In this document: positions 1-9,471 of the stretch, piece by piece
How the letters are laid out: each line of letters begins with the position of its first letter
Numbering within the stretch: position 1 is the stretch's first letter
Source: a virus
Taxonomy: Duplodnaviria > Heunggongvirae > Uroviricota > Caudoviricetes
Virus record (IMG/VR): IMGVR_UViG_2534681810_000007
Span: 1-9,471 of that record
Reading direction: 5' to 3' (one strand)
DNA: 9,471 bases
Translations under genes and position numbers: made by a program
Notes under the pieces: generated by a model
Seen by the model: the letters and a program-made list of their open reading frames with translations, nothing else
Told to the model about the DNA's origin: nothing
The model's database searches: none

Positions 1-618
1 TCAGGCTTGAATACCTTTATCGAATCCCGGTAATAAAAACTGTCCCTGTCTCTCCAGACGTTCCAGCTTTGCAAGCAATTGAGGTTTTTTCGTTCTCCCC
101 CAGCGATTGAGCAGACGGCCTGACATGCTGGCGACATCCTTCTCTTTCATGTACTCCAGCATTACGGCGTTACGTTCTGCTTCATAACTTTCGCTGTACT
201 TACGGAGTTCTGCTGACATCCAGTTAAACGCATTGATATAGGCTTCTTTAACAGCATCGGCTTTTGCCCCGTTAAATCCCATAACCAGCATAACGAAGCC
301 ACTAAAGTCCATGCGGTAGTAAATCTGTTTCTTGTCAAAAATCCCTAAGTCATTGATTTTCTCGACGGCCCAAAAATGGGTTGTCGAGAATTCCTCAGAA
401 CATCTCAAACATTTAATAGCCCTAATCACATGCTGATGGCGTTTACCAAATGCCCTGGCAATCTGGAAGGTGTCAGTTACCGGTTGACCTTCTGCTGCGG
501 TAACTAACTGGCGAAAGTCGAAGTCATGATTCGCAATTAATTCATTCATGGCGTTGCCTGCTTCTTTGAAATGAACCTTTGCCGCACAGGAAACCAGCCC
601 ACCGAGGCTCGCCAGCAC
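1..618 (-). CDS. rha: Rha-family phage regulatory protein (antirepressor-like)
   Basis: Minus-strand ORF ending with a TGA at 3..1. The segment MNELIANHDFDFRQLVTAAEGQPVTDTFQIARAFGKRHQHVIRAIK resembles the N-terminal Phage_pRha domain, by recall. Two candidate starts: GTG at 618..616 with GAGGA 9 nt upstream, or ATG at 549..547 (MNELIA...) with a weaker AGCAGG. Position after the lysis genes matches the P22-type arrangement. Confidence 0.7.
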   Translation of the reverse strand: MLASLGGLVSCAAKVHFKEAGNAMNELIANHDFDFRQLVTAAEGQPVTDTFQIARAFGKRHQHVIRAIKCLRCSEEFSTTHFWAVEKINDLGIFDKKQIYYRMDFSGFVMLVMGFNGAKADAVKEAYINAFNWMSAELRKYSESYEAERNAVMLEYMKEKDVASMSGRLLNRWGRTKKPQLLAKLERLERQGQFLLPGFDKGIQA

Positions 619-702
619 TAACTGGTATCCTCAAAGGCCCATTCCAAAGGGTCAGGTTCGGTGTTTATTGTGCGCTGCGGTGCGCGGTGAAATACCGGTA
701 CA

Positions 703-731
703 AAAATGCCCCGCATCTGCGAGGCATTTTC
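703..731 (-). terminator. Imperfect hairpin with flanking T/A runs between Rz and rha; candidate intrinsic terminator
   Basis: aaaatgcc / ggcatttt arms at 703..710 and 723..730, with an inner cgca / tgcg stem. On the minus strand the stem is followed by TTTTTG, about 40 nt downstream of the Rz stop. Confidence 0.45.
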
Positions 732-767
732 CTGAAAGTCACTTGTTAAATTTCAGTGAAATTAAAA

Positions 768-1205
768 TTATTTTAAGCACTGCGTCCTGATGTATTCCTG
801 CAGGTAGTTAACCTGCGCGGTTATCTTGTCGATTCCACCTCGGAGACGGTAATAATTGAGTTCAGCATCTGCTGTAAGTCCTGGGCTTTCTCCATCGCCC
901 ATGCTGCTGGCTCCGGTCGTTGACTTTGCACAGGTGGCGGAGACTTGCAGGCGCTTACGCCCAGCAGAAACATCAGCACGGAGACTTTCGATAGTCGCAT
1001 TAGCATCAGCAAGCTCCTTTGTGTATCTGGCGTCGAGTTCTGCTACATCACGTTGACGCTTCTGCATGTCAGCGATGATGGATGTGGCTTTGTCGCGCTG
1101 GTCTTTGTAGGCGATGGCGTTATCACGGTAATGATTAACAGCCCATGACAGGCAGAGGATGATGCAAATAACCAGAGCGGAGATAATCGCGGTTACCCTG
1201 CTCAT
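768..1205 (-). CDS. Rz: Rz i-spanin (inner-membrane spanin subunit)
   Basis: Translation [36 protein letters not shown]... is nearly collinear with lambda Rz as I recall it. N-terminal TM helix followed by a coiled-coil-like periplasmic region. Start ATG at 1205..1203 overlaps the endolysin TGA stop (ATGA). Confidence 0.9.
821..1006 (-). CDS. Rz1: Rz1 o-spanin (outer-membrane lipoprotein), embedded in Rz in the +1 frame
   Basis: 61 aa, [27 protein letters not shown]...: signal peptide, lipobox-like VSAC and a proline-rich mature region, typical of Rz1. AGGAG lies 7 nt upstream of the ATG at 1006. Entirely inside Rz in another frame. Confidence 0.85.
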
Positions 1206-1699
1206 TGCTGCCCCCACAAACAGACTTCACGCTCAATATCACGACGGGTCATCAGCCCTTTCCATTGCTTACCGCCAGCGTATGTCCAGCGACGTAGCTG
1301 GTCACATGCGCCTTTGATATCACCCTGGTTTATTTTGCGAAGAAGCGTCGATGTTCTGAAATTACCAGCGCCCACGTTGTAAACGAACGAGTAAAGAGCG
1401 CCGCGCGTTGTTTCCGGTATATCGACTTTGATGTACGGGTTAATTTGTCTGGCGACCGTGGCAAGGTCTTTATTCAGGAGGGCTTTGCATTCTGCTTCGG
1501 TATACGTTTTACCGGGAATGATGTCTTTTCCGGTGTGTCCGTGACATACAGTCCATACGCCAACGATATCTTCGTATGGTATGTAGCTGACACCTTCCAG
1601 GCCATCGTCACCACTCGGACCAGTGATGAGCACAGACGCTATGGCAACAGCCCCACCACCAATAGCAGCAGCAACAGCCTTGCGTAATGATGGCGACAT
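1202..1699 (-). CDS. R: SAR endolysin (phage-21 R-type lysozyme with signal-anchor-release domain)
   Basis: 165 aa. N-terminal Gly/Ala-rich weakly hydrophobic SAR segment ([18 protein letters not shown]), then [24 protein letters not shown] with the E-D-T lysozyme catalytic arrangement. Near-identical to phage 21 R as I recall it. Start ATG 1699..1697 overlaps the holin stop. Confidence 0.92.
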
Positions 1700-1914
1700 T
1701 ATTCACCTCTCGCAGCCTTACGCTTATCTTCTTTAATCTTGAAATAAAGGTTTGTCAGATACGTCAGCAAGCCAAACACCAGGCTACCCAATACGCCTAT
1801 TGCCACCCACTGGGATGGGGAGACTTTGTCCAGCAACTGCAGTAGCCAGTATCCCGTCCCCACCGCTGACGTGGTGTATGACACACCTGTTGTTATTTTT
1901 TCCATCTGGTACAT
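1699..1914 (-). CDS. S: Pinholin (phage-21 S-type class II holin) with dual-start motif
   Basis: From the ATG at 1914 the product is 71 aa, [71 protein letters not shown]: two TM segments and a charged C-terminus, matching S21. GGGAGA lies 6 nt upstream. A second in-frame Met three codons later (M-Y-Q-M) is the holin/antiholin dual-start arrangement. The longer track ORF from 1959 has no ribosome-binding site. Confidence 0.88.
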
Positions 1915-1942
1915 ACCCCGTCTCCCGTTATCCGGAAGCTGA

Positions 1943-1977
1943 CAACAATAAAAAGCCACCAGTTAATTCCTGATGGC
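1943..1977 (-). terminator. Intrinsic terminator immediately upstream of the lysis cassette
   Basis: Minus-strand RNA would form an 8-bp stem GCCAUCAG / CUGGUGGC (one G.U) with a 7-nt loop, followed by UUUUUAUUGUUG. It lies about 30 nt upstream of the pinholin start. Confidence 0.6.
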
Positions 1978-2322
1978 CCTGATGCATAAACGTCATAATA
2001 CCTGACTGTTATGATTGACAATAATGATAATGTTTATATAGAAAGGTTCCCGATGTGTGTTACATATCATTTCTCCACGGGGAATATCCCCACGCCAGCG
2101 CAGACTCTTTTACCCGTTCTCTTCTGCGCTGGCTCTTTTTTATTATGCTGCTGCATTTACCTCTGGCACCATGCTTTCTATCTCAACACAATACGTGGTA
2201 CTTCTTGTAACCAATATCATAACGATTAATCGACATAGAATTTCTCCCGTGTACAGGAACAGAGTTAAAAAGCCGGAACCGGAATCAAATCACAGGATGA
2301 CCATCTGCCAGTGGCAGGTCAT

Positions 2323-2350
2323 AAAAAAAAGGCCGCGCCATGCGCAGCCA
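2323..2350 (-). terminator. Intrinsic terminator downstream of the moron gene (candidate tR'-equivalent)
   Basis: Minus strand reads ggcTGCGCatgGCGCGgcc followed by TTTTTTTT: an 8-bp GC-rich stem with one G.U, a 3-nt loop and a U8 tract. The plus strand has A8 before the stem and no T-run after it, so it is unidirectional. Confidence 0.65.
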
Positions 2351-2779
2351 GAACTCACAAGGAAAATGATAGAAGGAAATAACATTAGTGATGTACGCAT
2401 GGCGCCTCCCGCTAAGTTCTGCAATGATCAAACAGAACTCGCTACGTGCCCTTAAAACTCGATCATTTAGCCCCTCCAAGGAGGATTCACCATGCGGTTG
2501 ATTTTTTAATAAACAGTAAACAAAAAAGTCAAGAATTATTCATTCTGTTCTTTCATCATCGGCCACAGCAATACCACAATGCCGCAGACCAGAGCGCCAT
2601 CAGTCAGTACCAACATTATCCTGCTGGTGAAATCCATCATCACCATCACTAAAAGCAGGATCACAACAGCAAGCAGACACAGTTTATAAAACAATGTTCA
2701 GAAAACGCATTCAGCATGCCTAAGGTTCTATTCCTACGAATAGCCAACTTGCAACTTAAAATATTATTTATGCAGCCAA

Positions 2780-3538
2780 TTAAATTCTGGTCCTTACAAT
2801 ATCAACCTGAAGATTCTTATCTTGTGCTGATTGATAAATGACAAACCTTTTACTACCTGCATTGAAAGAAGTAGACAAAACCAGACAATTATCATAACGA
2901 GCAAGAACATAATACCAACCATCATTATAATTAATCATTTCATATTCTTTCTTAAACTGCGGTTTGTAATATCCTGTCAGAAATGAAAAAAGCCAGAAAT
3001 ATGCCACAAAAGCAATCATCACAATCTCAAAAAAATGTTTTTTTATAAATGGCTTATCATAGAAGCATGATACCGATAAAAATCGCCCATAAGATCTTAT
3101 CGAAATTGTAACCGCCAGCGCAATCGCTGCTGACAGTAGCAAAAGAGGTACCTGAATCTTCTGTCTCAATATAGAAAACTCAATAATTGCCGGCACAAAC
3201 AATAATTCCACAGCAAAATAAAGGCGAAATACATTTAGCTCTTGCATAGAATGTTTTCTTTTCACTGCGAAAAAGAATACAACACCAATACCCCAACCGA
3301 TAAGAAATATAGCAATGACGATAACTGCAAAAAATAAACTTCTGGCAACATCATCAACACCTGCACCTACAATCCACCATGGGAAGCCGTAGTAAAAAGA
3401 AGTACCCCATCCATAGAAATAAGCACTCCCCCATCCAAGGCATCCCATGTAGGCAATAAAAAGTGAAGAACTCCTGAGCAGCGCACCATCCTTCATAACC
3501 ACCCCAATACAAGATGATAACATTGGCTTACAACTCAT
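2780..3538 (-). CDS. Hypothetical multi-pass membrane protein of unknown function (AT-rich moron between pR' and the lysis genes)
   Basis: 252-aa ORF with about five hydrophobic helices rich in aromatic and Gly residues, and a ~60-aa hydrophilic C-terminal tail. The segment is visibly more AT-rich than the flanking phage genes. I recognise no family. Start is uncertain: the ATGs at 3538, 3523 and 3496 all lack a good Shine-Dalgarno sequence. Confidence 0.6.
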   Translation of the reverse strand: MSCKPMLSSCIGVVMKDGALLRSSSLFIAYMGCLGWGSAYFYGWGTSFYYGFPWWIVGAGVDDVARSLFFAVIVIAIFLIGWGIGVVFFFAVKRKHSMQELNVFRLYFAVELLFVPAIIEFSILRQKIQVPLLLLSAAIALAVTISIRSYGRFLSVSCFYDKPFIKKHFFEIVMIAFVAYFWLFSFLTGYYKPQFKKEYEMINYNDGWYYVLARYDNCLVLSTSFNAGSKRFVIYQSAQDKNLQVDIVRTRI

Positions 3539-3696
3539 AACAAAAGCAATTCAATGCCGTCAAGAGGTTACAGGCTAAAAAACTCTATTACATTGCAGTC
3601 AGCATGTTTACTACACAAATACAATTCAGAGCATAAAAACTACTCGGCGGCAGGTTATTGAGACTCATCAATGACATGTAAAAAACGCCCATTATT

Positions 3697-3732
3697 GGTG
3701 TCAAGTTTCCCCAAAGTTATTCAAAAAGTCAA
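3697..3732 (-). promoter_or_regulatory. pR'-like late promoter with qut/pause region, just downstream of Q
   Basis: Minus strand reads TTGACT-(17 nt)-GAAACT-TGACACCAATAATGGG. This is collinear with lambda pR' as I recall it (TTGACT-(17 nt)-TAAATT-TGACTCAACGATGGG), including the -10-like pause element in the early transcribed region (AATAAT here, AACGAT in lambda). Confidence 0.6.
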
Positions 3733-3774
3733 TATTATGCCGTTAATATGTTGCCATCCGTGGCAATCATGGCG

Positions 3775-4398
3775 CTAACGTGTGATCGCATTCAAAATGT
3801 TGTCTGCGATTGACTCTTCCTTGTGGCATTGCACAACCAGAGCGTCATACAGCGGCTTAACAGTGCGTGACCAGGTGGGTTGGGTAAGGTTTGGGATTAG
3901 CATCGTCACAGCGCGATATGCGGCGCTTGCTGGCATTCTTGAATAACCGACGCCTTTACATCTTCCGCACTCTTTCTCAGCAACTCTCCCCCACAGCTCT
4001 GTTTTGGCTATATCAACCGCACGGCCTGTACCGTGGCAATCTCTGCATCTTGCGCCCGGCGTAGCGGCACTACGGCAATAATCCGCATAAGCGAATGTTG
4101 CGAGCACTTGCAGTACCTTTGCCTTAGTATTTCCTTCAAGCTTTGCCACGCCACGGTATTTCCCCGATACCTTGTGTGCAAATTGCATCAGATAGTTGAT
4201 AGCCTTTTGTTTGTCGTTCTGGCTGAGTTCGTGCTTACCACAGAATACAGCCATTCCGAATCCGGCTTGTGATTGCGCCATCCCCATAGCAGCCATCACA
4301 TCAGTACCGGAAAGAGAGTCAGAAGCCGTGGCCCGTGGTGAGTCGCTCATCATCGGGCTTTTTGGCGAATGAAATTTAGCTATGCTTTCGAGTCTCAT
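3775..4398 (-). CDS. Q: Late-gene antiterminator Q (lambda Q type)
   Basis: 207 aa, [50 protein letters not shown]..., essentially identical to lambda Q by recall, including the Cys-rich zinc-binding region (CRDCHGTGR...CGRCKGVGY). Start ATG overlaps the phosphatase stop. Confidence 0.95.
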
Positions 4399-5060
4399 GC
4401 GCCTTCTCCCTGTACCTGAATCAATGTGAGGTTTCCGCAGAACACTGCGCCAGTATCGATATACATCTGGTTGGCAAATTTGAGTGGTTTCACTGCTGGC
4501 GTATGACCAAAGATGAACGTGTCCGCGCCTTTGATTTCTTTCACGATCCCGTCTTGTGAGTTGCTGATTCGTTCGCGGTTCCAGATTACCTGCTGATGAT
4601 CAACTGGCTTTCCAAACTCGTATTTATCACAAGGATAATCGGCGTGGCAGATGACATATTTTTTTCCTTTACTCACCAGTTCGATGATTAACGGAAGTTC
4701 ATCTGCTTTATGGGCAAGAGCTTTAGCCAGAATTTCTTTGTCGTAATCGAGATTAAAGAACCAGCCACCGCCATTAAGCAGCCAGTGATTGACGTTTCCA
4801 CGCTCTGATAAGCCATCAATCATCATTTGCTCATGGTTTCCACGTACAGCTCTGAACCAGGGGAATGTGATTAATTCCAGGCATTCAACGTTCTCTGCAC
4901 CACGATCAACCAAATCGCCCACCGAGATAAGCAGGTCTTTTTTGTTGTCGAATCCAATCGTATCCAGTTTGTTCATCAGGTTCGTGTAGCATCCGTGCAG
5001 ATCGCCAACTACCCAAGTATTTCGGTATTTGCTGCCATCAATTCTTTCGTAGATATTCAT
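4395..5060 (-). CDS. Ser/Thr protein phosphatase (lambda orf221 / NinI-like, calcineurin-like metallophosphoesterase)
   Basis: 221 aa with the metallophosphatase motifs GDLHG, GDLVDRG and GNHE, and a C-terminus ...[19 protein letters not shown] matching lambda protein phosphatase as I recall it. ATGA overlap with the ninG stop. Confidence 0.95.
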
Positions 5061-5680
5061 GCAGCCTCACTTCTGCTGTTTCGCAGTTTTTTAAGTTTCT
5101 GTTGATACTCCGCCTTGATGGTCCTGCACTCTTCGATAGTCCAGCGATGGCGGTTATGGTTTGATTCGATTTCGTCTACTGCTTCCTGCCCGATGCGGCT
5201 AATCAGTTCGACGCGATACGGAACGAGATTTCCGCTTTTGTGCTGGTTGCACACCACACATTGCTTGTGAATATTGCGTTCATCAAATCGGAGTTGAGGT
5301 GCCGCAGCAGTTGTCCGGTAATGCCCGGCATCCCACTGAGCAGACGTGAGCGTTCCGCACGAGATACATGGTAAGTCGCGGTCTCTTTCTCTGATGAAGG
5401 CGTTTACGGCTTGTTGGGCTTGTTTAATCCAGTAACTGCGGGGCTTTAAGGCGAGTTTTTGAATCTTAAGTTTATCTTTCTGTTTCTGCTCCTCTCGTCG
5501 TCGTTTCTTCTCTGCTGCCTTTTCTGCCTTTTCCGCTTTTTCGCGTTCTTTGCTTCGTCGTTCGAGTGCTATCTTGGTTCCACACTCTGGAGAGCACCAC
5601 CACTGATTAGCGAATGCAGGGTGAAACCATTCCCGACATTCATCGTTTTTACATCGTCTTCGCGCTGGTTTAGCCATCAT
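5057..5680 (-). CDS. ninG: NinG / Rap recombination-associated protein (structure-specific endonuclease)
   Basis: 207 aa, [42 protein letters not shown]..., with a lysine/glutamate-rich low-complexity stretch and a Cys-rich C-terminal half, matching lambda NinG. The start overlaps the 3' end of ninF. Confidence 0.92.
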
Positions 5681-5840
5681 CTTCTTCCTCGTGCATCGAG
5701 CTATTCGGATCGCTCATAAGTTCTGCGCAACAGTGCTCACACACGTGAACTTCCAGCACATGCAGCTTCTGACCGCAGTTAGCGCACGTTAAAGCTCGCT
5801 CGACGCTTTCTTGTTCGTAACTTCGATTTTGGTCAATCAC
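5670..5840 (-). CDS. ninF: NinF-like small zinc-finger protein
   Basis: My own translation of the minus strand (the ORF is below the track cut-off): (V/M)[55 protein letters not shown], which matches lambda NinF by recall. Apparent GTG start at 5840..5838 overlaps the ninE TGA (GTGA). Start codon is uncertain. Confidence 0.75.
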
Positions 5841-6019
5841 CTTGTTTTCCTCGCACGTTCTCTAAGCCACCGGATATCCCACAGGTGAGCCGTGTAGTTG
5901 AAGGTTTTTACGTCAGATTCTTTTGGGATTGGCTTGCGTTTATTTCTGGAGCGTTTCGTTGGAAGGTATTTGCAGTTTTCGCAGATGATGTCGGTGAAAC
6001 TTCGTCGCTGTCGTCTCAT
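5837..6019 (-). CDS. ninE: NinE protein
   Basis: 60 aa from the ATG at 6019, [60 protein letters not shown], matching lambda NinE. AGGAGG lies 5 nt upstream. The longer track ORF from 6064 has no ribosome-binding site. ATGA overlap with the ninB stop. Confidence 0.85.
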
Positions 6020-6426
6020 TCGTACCTCCTGTCGGTAAATCTGACACCCTGACCAATAGCCCATGCTGTCGTGTACTCAATCAGACTTGCCATACGCTTC
6101 ACACTCATCTGCGCGCTGCTTTCGCGAATGTTGACGCATTCGCCTTCAAGCCCGGGTAAAACATCAGCTTCCTGTTTCGTTGCCACTGCATGACCGCTTA
6201 TCAACAAAACCTTCCATTGTTCTGGTTTTAACCATTTGCCGCGCCACTGAACTTGCCTAGCGATATCTGCGACCATCGCGTGAAATTTTGCGTTCTGGTC
6301 AAGGTTGCGCTTGTAGTCAGTAATGCGGATGGTAACTGGCTTGTCTTTATCGAGTGGTGTTGCGAGGATGGCGTTGATTGCGGCTTGCTGTTGTTGCTTA
6401 GTTCGGAGGAAGATTGTTTGCTTCAT
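6016..6426 (-). CDS. ninB: NinB / Orf-family recombination mediator
   Basis: 136 aa. The block [35 protein letters not shown] aligns with lambda NinB RSLDQNRKLWACLGDVSRQVEWHGRWLDAESWKCVF (recalled). GAGG lies 5 nt upstream of the ATG at 6426. Confidence 0.8.
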
Positions 6427-6433
6427 CGTTACC

Positions 6434-6640
6434 TCAACTCACAAAACGCCACGCCACTTTTGCTACGACAACAGGCATAACACCGATAATCACCCACAGG
6501 AAAATGCTACCGAAAAGCACACCAACCAGGTCTTTACCTTCGCCTACCAGCCGGACAAAACTGCTGGCAACCACAATGAACGTCGCCACCATCCACATAG
6601 CACCGAGAATCCTCAATGCAGAAAAAATCAACTCAACCAC
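6434..6640 (-). CDS. Hypothetical small two-helix membrane protein (68 aa)
   Basis: MVELIFSALRILGAMWMVATFIVVASSFVRLVGEGKDLVGVLFGSIFLWVIIGVMPVVVAKVAWRFVS: two hydrophobic helices separated by a short charged loop. GGGGGAGAG lies 6 nt upstream of the ATG. It sits between the tR2-like terminator and ninB, and its stop is 8 nt before the ninB start. Confidence 0.6.
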   Translation of the reverse strand: MVELIFSALRILGAMWMVATFIVVASSFVRLVGEGKDLVGVLFGSIFLWVIIGVMPVVVAKVAWRFVS

Positions 6641-6650
6641 GATTTACTCT

Positions 6651-6687
6651 CCCCCAAATAAAAAGGCCTGCGATTACCAGCAGGCCT
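6651..6687 (-). terminator. tR2-like intrinsic terminator downstream of ren
   Basis: AGGCCTGC / GCAGGCCT 8-bp stem with an 8-nt loop. On the minus strand it is followed by TTTTATTTGG. This matches the lambda terminator that precedes ninB, as I recall it. Confidence 0.65.
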
Positions 6688-6712
6688 GTTACAAGCTCAG
6701 TGATGTAGATGG

Positions 6713-7003
6713 TCATCTTTTAACTCCATATACCGCCAATACCCGTTTCATCGCGGCACTCTGGCGACACTCCTTAAAAATTAGGTTCGTGCTCATCTTT
6801 CCTTCCCGTTCTTCCTTGGTAGCAAACCGGTAATACACCGTTCGCCAGACCTTACCTTCGATAACCAGAAGACCTGCCCGTGCCATTTTAGCCGCGGCCT
6901 GATTTATGCTGGTTACTGTTGCGCCTGTTAGCGCGGCAACGTCCGGCGCACAGAAGCTATTATGCGTCCCCAGGTAATGAATAATTGCCTCTTTGCCCGT
7001 CAT
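6713..7003 (-). CDS. ren: Ren protein (Rex-exclusion resistance)
   Basis: 96 aa, MTGKEAIIHYLGTHNSFCAPDVAALTGATVTSINQAAAKMARAGLLVIEGKVWRTVYYRFATKEEREGKMSTNLIFKECRQSAAMKRVLAVYGVKR, near-identical to lambda Ren by recall. ATGA overlap with the P stop. Confidence 0.9.
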   Translation of the reverse strand: MTGKEAIIHYLGTHNSFCAPDVAALTGATVTSINQAAAKMARAGLLVIEGKVWRTVYYRFATKEEREGKMSTNLIFKECRQSAAMKRVLAVYGVKR

Positions 7004-7243
7004 ACACTTGCTCCTTTCAGTCCGAACTTAGCTTTGAGTTCTGCGATCTTCGCCAGAGCCTGTGCACGATTTAGAGGTCTACCGCCCATGACAGGAAGTT
7101 GTTTTACTGGTTCAGGGATCGCCTCACCACGGTTAATTCTCGCAGTCATATGGACAAGCTCATCTGCGGCCTTACGGCGTAATTCCGCATCAGTAAGCGC
7201 ATTGGCCCGCATGTTCTGATACAGGTTGGTAACCAGCCAGTAG
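7000..7243 (-). pseudogene. P: Replication protein P, 3' fragment only (truncated at the IS boundary)
   Basis: The reading frame ends ...ELRRKAADELVHMTARINRGEAIPEPVKQLPVMGGRPLNRAQALAKIAELKAKFGLKGASV, matching the lambda P C-terminus. The first 9 codons of the track ORF 7000..7269 lie inside the IS inverted repeat, so only about the last 80 codons of P remain. Confidence 0.8.
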
Positions 7244-7315
7244 TGTAGTGGCACACTGAATTTGGCCACCTGAACAGAGGTGATATGCTCACCTCAGAAC
7301 AACACAGGTGCTCCA

Positions 7316-8484
<1,169 letters not shown>

Positions 8485-8493
8485 CCACTACAT

Positions 8494-9471
8494 AAAGAGT
8501 TCGGATTAGGCAGAGACAGACGTATAGCAATCACTGAAGCTATACAGGCCAATATTGAGTTGCTATCCGGGAACAGGCGTGAGTCACTGATAGACAGAAT
8601 TAAAGGCGCTGACGCAATCACTCTTCATGCGTGGCTTGACCGATATGAAACAATCCTCAGCGAGAGGGGTATCAGGCCGAAAACTCTACTCGACTACGCC
8701 AGCAAAATCAGGGCAATCCGAAGAAAATTGCCGGACAAACCGCTCGCTGACATATCAACGAAAGAGGTGGCAGCAATGCTAAACACCTACGTAGCAGAAG
8801 GTAAAGCGGCTTCCGCAAAATTAATCAGGTCAACCCTTGTTGACGTTTTTCGTGAGGCAATAGCCGAGGGGCATGTGGCTACGAATCCGGTAACAGCAAC
8901 CCGCACAGCAAAGTCAGAAGTAAGGCGCTCAAGGCTGACAGCTAATGAGTATGTCGCGATTCACCATGCAGCCGAACCTCTCCCAATCTGGCTGAGGCTT
9001 GCGATGGATTTGGCCGTCGTTACAGGTCAGAGAGTCGGCGATTTGTGCAAAATGAAATGGTCAGACATAAACGACAACCATCTTCACATTGAACAGGGTA
9101 AAACAGGGGCTAAGCTCGCCATTCCGCTGACGCTAACGATTGACGCGCTCAATATCTCATTGGCCGATACACTACAGAAATGCAGGGAGGTCAGCGGCAG
9201 TGAAACAATAATTGCATCAACGCATCACGAACCGCTTTCCCCGAAAACAGTATCTAAGTATTTTACAAAGGCGAGAAATGCATCTGGACTCTCATTTGAT
9301 GGAGACCCGCCAACATTCCATGAACTGCGTAGCCTGTCGGCGAGGCTATACCGGAATCAGATTGGCGATAAGTTTGCTCAACGTCTTCTCGGGCATAAAT
9401 CAGATTCAATGGCGGCGCGGTATAGGGACAGCCGAGGGAGAGAATGGGACAAAATTGAAATCAACAAATGA
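8494..9471 (+). pseudogene. int: Lambda-family tyrosine integrase lacking its N-terminus (about 34 codons removed at the IS junction)
   Basis: Translation from 8494 reads KEFGLGRDRRIAITEAIQANIELLSGNRRESLIDRIKGADAITLHAWLDRYE... and ends ...RGREWDKIEINK with a TGA at 9469..9471, collinear with lambda Int from about residue 35. Catalytic-domain residues appear present (GQRVGDLC, HELRSLSARLY, LLGHKSD, MAARYRD). There is no native start codon; the first in-frame start is a TTG at 8560. Confidence 0.85.

Follow-up and report, generated by a model that had tools for sequence, protein, structure and literature searches.

Lambdoid phages accommodate accessory genes, or morons, between the antiterminator gene Q and the lysis genes. 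The stx genes at this site are expressed in a dual manner: from their own promoter in the lysogen and by Q-dependent late transcription. The gene treated here occupies the same interval in a 9,471-nt stretch of a Caudoviricetes record (IMGVR_UViG_2534681810_000007, positions 1 to 9,471), hereafter the window, where an open reading frame (ORF) for a membrane protein is found at 2780..3538 on the minus strand. Phage lambda has unrelated sequence between Q and S and lacks this gene; phages 434 and 2B8 carry it.

A relative outside phages is STM1630 of Salmonella Typhimurium, which lies between steB and sseJ (PMC6785131). Passages of the S1 text of PMC6785131 describe a −10 element and transcription start site mapped for STM1630 itself, an H-NS binding site, and expression in macrophages and in medium that induces Salmonella pathogenicity island 2 (SPI-2). 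In the same passages, signature-tagged mutants are reported as attenuated in calves and chickens, deletion in strain 4/74 leads to higher intramacrophage replication, and the promoter is given as inactivated in ST313. Co-regulation with SPI-2 is listed in Table 2 of PMC2639726.

Judged by its sequence, the gene in the window is part of a self-contained moron cassette that would recombine into lambdoid prophages between Q and the lysis genes. Its placement as a moron at a known cargo site is well supported. The chances are considered about even that the full explanation—a self-contained cassette with its own promoter and a role in host interaction—is correct. Confidence in the family identity and the structure of the cassette is higher than in the function.

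A mobile cassette between Q and the lysis genes

In a blastn comparison, the window is 98% identical to phage 434 from 3656 to 2212, i.e., over 1.45 kb, with sharp boundaries at both positions. The module is preceded in phage 434 by a different, Q82-like Q. Homologues follow Q genes with four different Q-type annotations or Pfam matches; for the more divergent ones, the Pfam types are PF06530 in Yersinia, PF06323 in E. coli prophages, and DUF1133 with a weak PF06530 match, also in E. coli prophages. The coding sequence has a GC content of 36.4% (31% at third codon positions) and the whole module one of 38.8%, compared with 48.7% in the remainder of the window and 50.8% in Q. The original prediction of a moron in the Q-to-S interval that is more AT-rich than the flanking phage genes and separately acquired thus holds: the composition, the absence from lambda with presence in 434 and 2B8, and the sharp boundaries all agree with it.

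A second type of prophage features the homologue in another setting. In three loci (L021–L023), it follows a methylase gene and two tRNA genes and precedes the genes for NanS-p, DUF1378, DUF826, and a holin. This order—methylase, tRNA, cargo, NanS-p—is presumably the one in which stx is the cargo of Stx phages. Genes for LpxR and PmrD are located near the homologue in these loci.

The surroundings of the cassette vary in further respects. An lpxR gene occurs within a few kilobases of the homologue in two prophage types (1708–2667 in the phage 434 record, L002; approximately 5970–6919 in L021–L023) and pmrD beside it in one (7187–7504 in L022), both being envelope-modifying cargo genes. Phage 434 contains a 1.85-kb gene for the SASA esterase NanS-p between terminator and holin (L002, 5250–7170), which is lacking in the window (junction 2211/2212); in phage 2B8, two mobile-element genes are found at this position.

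The gene and its family

The ORF of 252 codons is present in the window, and by sequence comparison it is clearly a real gene because the ratio of nonsynonymous to synonymous substitution rates (dN/dS) against homologues at 39–68% amino-acid identity is low, 0.10–0.20, as under purifying selection, and because 73 clusters share the same architecture. The predicted product of 252 aa does not hold with respect to its start. The equivalent of M15 is the start in every homologue—a GTG in the copy from enterotoxigenic E. coli (ETEC)—and the Shine–Dalgarno-like sequence GGGGTGG (3505–3499) lies upstream of the ATG at 3496; hence, the product almost certainly has 238 aa. The ATG at 3538–3536, from which the 252-aa form would start, has no Shine–Dalgarno sequence and is located within a conserved upstream element (see below). 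The RefSeq call of 247 aa is probably too long as well. The corrected start and the conserved element upstream of it are relevant to anyone cloning the gene. Within the coding sequence, at approximately 3440–3398 of the minus strand, a hairpin of 11 bp (−11 kcal/mol) followed by U5 falls on the stretch that encodes GWGSAYFYGWG, the peptide motif with the highest conservation, and may result from the repetition of GWG codons.

The protein is identical to CPT_434_68 of phage 434, a "putative membrane protein", and 98% identical to that of phage 2B8. A 1301-nt stretch that spans the gene is found as an identical copy in E. coli RM14723—where RefSeq annotates WP_001302581.1 (247 aa)—and in other strains; the homologous locus of prophage Sp17 in E. 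coli O157:H7 Sakai bears the annotation ECs_3500. No family had been recognized when the gene was first described from the letters alone, but on the basis of its sequence the protein is not new: it is a member of the catalogued family PF27470/PHROG 1521. The match to PHROG 1521 has an E-value of 2.1e-154 and covers profile positions 1–222 of 222; PHROG gives no function. The label PF27470, "TfpB", is a precomputed annotation in the protein collection, where it is attached to the cluster of a near-identical protein and to all 103 homologues. A search of a local Pfam-A copy that lacks the PF27470 model yielded only noise (E ≥ 0.23), as did a search of NCBIfam; a sequence-profile search of the PDB returned nothing below E = 0.58 and Foldseek against BFVD no match at E ≤ 0.001.

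The Pfam name presumably goes back to the tfpB ORF in the pilin inversion region of Moraxella bovis and Moraxella lacunata. No Moraxella members turned up in the protein searches, the representative-protein search, or the cluster look-ups; one copy on a Shigella dysenteriae plasmid is annotated "TfpB protein". Literature searches with TfpB, ECs3500, DUF3927, and the pCP301 tags found nothing relevant. A faint likeness to CPBP/Abi intramembrane proteases that had been pointed out dissolved upon comparison: the profile of this family, PF02517, gives no match even at E ≤ 10, the Glu of the "ELLF" and the His of the "FxxxH" motif vary from sequence to sequence in the alignment, and even the close homologues have no invariant Glu or His.

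The 73 clusters mentioned above were retrieved with a profile from a set of 1.84 billion representative proteins. At least 80% of the 1301-nt query is held by 682 of 5,426 complete E. coli genomes, roughly one in eight; the protein occurs in only three of 50,697 phage genome records. E. coli features many divergent alleles (39–100% identity) at equivalent prophage sites. Members with an organism name belong to Enterobacteriaceae, Pasteurellaceae, or Neisseria, except for one partial metagenome bin labeled Acinetobacter sp.; Klebsiella, Citrobacter rodentium, and Avibacterium of the Pasteurellaceae are among them. Lone chromosomal single-gene copies amid housekeeping genes are present in Avibacterium and one other organism.

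Promoter-like element and transcription

Directly upstream of the gene lies a promoter-like element of the extended −10 type: a −35 hexamer TTGACG (3563–3558), a spacer of 15 nt, and TGT-TATGAG (3542–3534), of which 3539–3534 is the −10 hexamer. The register TTGAC(G/T/A)-N15-TG(T/C)-TA(T/C)nnn recurs in five independent contexts, each time 52–70 nt ahead of the start codon: the window together with phage 434, the plasmid of ETEC that encodes the heat-labile toxin (LT), and the loci L021, L024, and L027. The proteins of these contexts are only 56–68% identical, and their flanking sequences cannot be aligned. In 434 and in L021, the gene lies behind terminators, and neither the sequence read at the ETEC LT plasmid locus nor the 2-kb contig L027 contains a Q gene; therefore, expression there in the lysogen would need an own promoter. 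In the phage 434 record, a CII-dependent promoter is marked at the same place (TTGT-N6-TTGT, L002 3996–4009; window 3543–3530). This candidate was discarded since its second half-site is not conserved, and it is probably a chance match.

The second conceivable source of transcripts is the late promoter pR'. As originally described, the gene is situated between a pR'-like promoter and the first strong terminator (Table 1). The −35 hexamer of pR', TTGACT (3732–3727), is that of lambda, whereas the −10 hexamer is GAAACT (3709–3704) instead of TAAATT; transcription would start at approximately 3697, and a −10-like AATAAT follows just downstream at the pause position. In the alignment, homology to lambda stops a few bases past +1, so that 6S/tR' of lambda is absent. 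The lambda-type late unit is thus present with Q, −35, and pause element, with a diverged −10 and a replacement of tR', which in lambda lies approximately 200 nt downstream. At the opening of the module, phage 434 features a terminator, ACCCGCU-GCCG-AGUGGGU (7-bp stem) followed by U8, with −11 to −13 kcal/mol. Its counterpart in the window has been degraded by a 4-nt deletion and substitutions to a 4-bp stem with U5 and approximately −2 kcal/mol. This terminator-less junction is the common form: 555 E. coli genomes, Sakai Sp17 included, match it at 99% identity or more. Upstream of the coding sequence, what is left is an AU-rich hairpin of irregular shape (−7.5 kcal/mol) whose U6 tract begins at 3582; a terminator comparable in strength to the one behind the module was not found on the minus strand between approximately 3700 and 3496. 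The latter terminator has an 8-bp stem (2349–2331) and U8 extending to 2323, with approximately −15 to −17 kcal/mol. A strong terminator between pR' and the gene that might have escaped notice at first was thus searched for and is not there.

Since the 434-type terminator is degraded and no strong one intervenes, Q-independent read-through from pR' into the gene is possible in the window variant. That the lysogen would express the gene chiefly in this way, from a constitutive pR', is a different matter and is regarded as rather unlikely. The −35 identity, the close relationship of Q to that of lambda (98%), the loss of tR', the drop of the module-opening terminator from approximately −12 to −2 kcal/mol, and the dominance of the terminator-less junction would all fit such a route. 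However, GAAACT matches in just three of six positions and is weaker than the lambda hexamer, the moderate hairpin still lies in the way, the gene has been kept behind terminators in 434 and L021 with its promoter-like element retained, and the ETEC plasmid and the short contig retain this element with no Q in the sequence read. The earlier claim of Q-independent pR' transcription thus stands as a possibility but not as a requirement for expression in the lysogen. An own promoter of the σ70 type directly upstream of the gene appears, by its conservation in register and by the mapped −10 element and start site of STM1630, to be the better-supported route. By analogy with STM1630, the gene with its GC content of 36% is probably silenced by H-NS.

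Architecture of the protein

The AlphaFold2 model, based on an alignment of 40 sequences, has a predicted local distance difference test score (pLDDT) of 80 and a predicted template modeling score (pTM) of 0.73. It features five long helices (residues 6–36, 47–78, 89–111, 116–136, and 149–181), in accordance with the approximately five helices predicted at first, and what had been described as a hydrophilic tail forms a C-terminal domain of five β-strands (184–235). Hydropathy reveals four clear transmembrane (TM) segments in addition to an aromatic and Gly-rich helix 1. From hydropathy and charge counts according to the positive-inside rule, a topology of five TM helices can be proposed in which the N-terminus is cytoplasmic and the C-terminal β-domain periplasmic.

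The family architecture consists of helix 1 with the motif AY.YGWG..YYG.PWW, four more TM helices, and the C-terminal β-domain with YY.L....IL; all these elements are kept in family alignments down to 12–29% identity. G175 is the only residue invariant family-wide, whereas A15, A25, Y26, Y28, G37, F167, and Y195 are nearly so. Conservation is highest in helix 1 (6–36), the following loop (37–46), and β-strands 1–3 (182–208), and lowest in TM4 and its two adjoining loops, one of which is the second cytoplasmic loop. Under the predicted topology, the conserved parts would point to a periplasm-facing surface. The protein is predicted to be a non-enzymatic polytopic inner-membrane protein, since conserved charged or catalytic residues are lacking across the family alignment.

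Homologues outside prophages

STM1630, whose identity with the Salmonella homologue was verified via a published deletion primer, has 238 aa, belongs to PF27470, and is 46% identical to the protein in the window; it is an AT-rich single gene with the same architecture and adjoins sseJ. A further homologue lies beside eltAB on ETEC plasmids, and among the matches listed, 99.6%-identical copies occur in three plasmids of porcine or gut E. coli. Four ETEC contigs (L005–L008) display the homologue between the divergent eltAB, approximately 870 bp away, and an insertion sequence (IS), with the STb gene 3 kb further; the arrangement may be a relic of a phage Q-to-S interval captured by a plasmid. 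Homologues are also found on 106 Shigella plasmids, the copy of pCP301 being located approximately 5 kb from spa40.

Function

The preferred reading is a lysogenic-conversion or host-interaction role on the envelope that benefits the bacterium, favored over exclusion and lysis. It is the least certain part of the explanation, and its probability is put close to, but not above, an even chance. This leaning derives from the location of homologues near LpxR and PmrD genes, eltAB, spa40 of the Shigella plasmid, and sseJ, from the co-regulation of STM1630 with SPI-2 together with its reported infection phenotypes, and from the narrow taxonomic range of the family members that have an organism name. 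In the proposed mechanism, the σ70-type promoter TTGACG-N15-TGT-TATGAG would drive the gene, which would probably be silenced by H-NS because of its base composition and turned on under host-associated conditions. After induction, RNA polymerase modified by Q would reach it before any other gene, and in the window variant unmodified pR' transcripts may read it as well, as no strong terminator lies between. Helix 1, the first periplasmic loop, and β-strands 1–3 would form a periplasm-facing surface for binding a conserved component of the envelope.

Several points weigh against this reading. The hexamers lack the usual T at −7, and the conserved element may be the site of a regulator instead of a promoter. 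The orientation of the C-terminal domain was derived from charge counting alone, and for the E. coli/434 allele expression, topology, and function are all inferred. STM1630 is only 46% identical to this allele and its phenotypes are modest; hypermotility was seen in one screen and is not among the phenotypes confirmed in the follow-up study. The link to virulence loci may partly reflect the over-sampling of pathogens and the gathering of AT-rich cargo in the same islands.

Superinfection exclusion or abortive infection, i.e., a protein made in the lysogen that blocks DNA entry or kills the infected cell, had been named at first and is considered unlikely here. A prophage-borne, single-gene, predicted inner-membrane protein with many TM helices and no enzymatic signature would suit this role, as known exclusion proteins are often membrane proteins, and the many divergent E. 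coli alleles at equivalent prophage sites (39–100% identity) are reminiscent of conflict genes. Against it speaks that none of the PADLOC models matches the protein or its two neighbors at E ≤ 1 and that PHROG assigns no function, that the chromosomal copies sit among housekeeping genes and not in defense islands, and that the ETEC and Shigella virulence-plasmid copies are outside any prophage. A fixed position between effector genes and co-regulation with SPI-2, as in Salmonella, would be unexpected for an exclusion gene. The idea of a modifier of lysis timing has against it that single-gene homologues are maintained on plasmids and chromosomes where lysis genes are missing from the vicinity. 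A late lytic function, in which the protein would be made only with Q antitermination and would tune lysis timing or envelope breakdown ahead of holin, endolysin, and spanin, is therefore very unlikely, even though the gene is the first of the late transcript, lies directly upstream of the lysis genes, and encodes a membrane protein whose β-domain is probably periplasmic. Lysis in lambda and 434B proceeds without the gene, which is rare in phage genome records and common in prophages, the defective one described here included.

As an extension of the host-interaction reading, PF27470/TfpB could represent a single, so far unrecognized class of envelope-acting host-adaptation factors that is spread by mobile elements among animal-associated Gram-negative bacteria, with a periplasmic face that binds a common envelope machine or lipid and thereby restrains growth or motility or alters the surface in the host. 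The copies in prophages of enterohemorrhagic E. coli, LT plasmids of ETEC, Shigella pINV, and the steB–sseJ islet of Salmonella, along with the members from Pasteurellaceae and Neisseria, would be instances of such spread. This proposal is speculative and, on balance, doubtful. If a common envelope function were true, a protein recurrent in pathogen screens could be studied genetically with little effort in phage 434 and E. coli K-12.

As a genome feature, the gene is ordinary: its product is already catalogued as a hypothetical membrane protein, and the cargo site is well known. The useful result lies in the cross-links: gp68 of phage 434, ECs_3500 of Sp17, the ORF of the ETEC LT plasmid, the ORF of the Shigella virulence plasmid, and STM1630 form one family, and these annotations were not found connected in the records and literature examined. 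This link across pathogens and the conserved promoter-like element are useful leads, and neither is surprising.

Neighboring elements and the host prophage

The window is a portion of a defective lambdoid prophage of E. coli, in which the rightward transcription of the phage runs on the minus strand; the features are collected in Table 1. Behind the class II holin follow a SAR (signal-anchor-release) endolysin, spanin, and Rha. At 7000–9471, the IS3-family element abuts the truncated P and the truncated integrase directly follows. As integrase and IS are directly joined to truncated P, the whole immunity and early region (cI, cro, N, and O) is missing, which leaves Q without its normal upstream promoter.

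Table 1. Features of the window around the membrane-protein gene and their positions
Feature	Position	Strand	Basis
Integrase fragment, N-terminally truncated	8560–9471	+	Window order
IS3-family element, abuts truncated replication gene P	7280–8484	+	Window order
ren and ninB–ninG, then Ser/Thr phosphatase, upstream of Q		−	Window order
Lambda-type antiterminator Q, 207 aa	3775..4398	−	98% identical to lambda Q; annotated antitermination protein
pR'-like late promoter	3704..3732	−	Alignment with lambda Q-pR'
AT-rich module	2212..3656	−	blastn of window against phages 434 and 2B8
Degraded terminator remnant	3632..3654	−	Comparison with start of phage 434 module
Putative promoter-like element of the gene itself	3534..3563	−	Register shared across five contexts
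Membrane-protein coding sequence, 238 aa, PF27470 "TfpB"/PHROG 1521	2780..3496	−	Homologue starts, Shine–Dalgarno sequence, profile match, AlphaFold2 model
DUF3927/P1 TciB-like small membrane protein, 52 aa	2536..2694	−	RefSeq and phage 434 annotation
STnc100-like sRNA element, 3' end formed by the strong terminator	2320..2525	−	Rfam RF02076 match
Class II (S21-type) holin, first gene of lysis cassette	1699..1914	−	ORF list and annotation

The DUF3927 ORF, annotated in phage 434 as TciB after the protein of phage P1, is probably co-transcribed with the membrane-protein gene. It occurs only with the 434-type module and is absent beside all other TfpB homologues; an obligate partnership was therefore dismissed, and the membrane protein would work alone. 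The match to STnc100 (RF02076) at 2320–2525 is full-length with 37.7 bits, below the gathering score of 47, and a local E-value of 7e-7; the strong terminator at 2349–2323 forms the 3' end of this element. Small ORFs at 2285–2479 were rejected as proteins, as the reading frame is not kept among the window, 434, and 2B8. On the opposite strand, WP_012578864.1 (RefSeq hypothetical protein, 132 aa; 2057–2455, plus strand) overlaps the sRNA-like element and the terminator in antisense; neither PADLOC nor NCBIfam yields a family match for it, and the annotation is probably spurious. A weak match to the sRNA Esr41 of enterohemorrhagic E. coli (2054–2143, plus strand; 32 bits versus a gathering score of 102) is likely noise.

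Comparison with known systems

The closest counterparts are gene 68 of phage 434, ECs_3500 of Sp17, and RefSeq WP_001302581.1. Phage 434 shares the entire 1.45-kb module including the DUF3927/TciB-like gene and the terminator, and the 91-nt junction upstream of ECs_3500 at Sp17 is 100% identical to that of the window. Phage 434 differs by its Q82-like Q, the intact terminator before the module, and the NanS-p esterase gene after it.

With the morons stx1/stx2, LT-II, nmpC, and lpxR, the gene has in common the cargo site between Q and S and the foreign composition; its proposed expression from an own promoter and by late transcription would parallel that of stx. However, in contrast to these toxin and envelope morons, the product belongs neither to the secreted toxins nor to the outer-membrane proteins but is a predicted inner-membrane protein with no recognizable activity. 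STM1630 differs in its setting: it is chromosomal between SPI-2 effector genes and not part of a prophage, and its promoter lies approximately 230 nt upstream and is of unrelated sequence.

CPBP/Abi proteases resemble the protein in being polytopic membrane proteins of similar size; they differ in that the protein has no match to their profile and the catalytic Glu and His motifs of these proteases, EExxxR, FxxxH, and HxxxB, are absent or variable. Moraxella tfpB has only the family label in common. Like HK97 gp15, P22 SieA, lambda RexB, and T4 Imm, the protein is prophage-encoded and predicted to reside in the inner membrane without enzymatic motifs. It bears no sequence or profile similarity to them and is larger, featuring five helices and a β-domain. 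Unlike these small phage exclusion proteins, the PF27470 family is also fixed in virulence loci outside phages.

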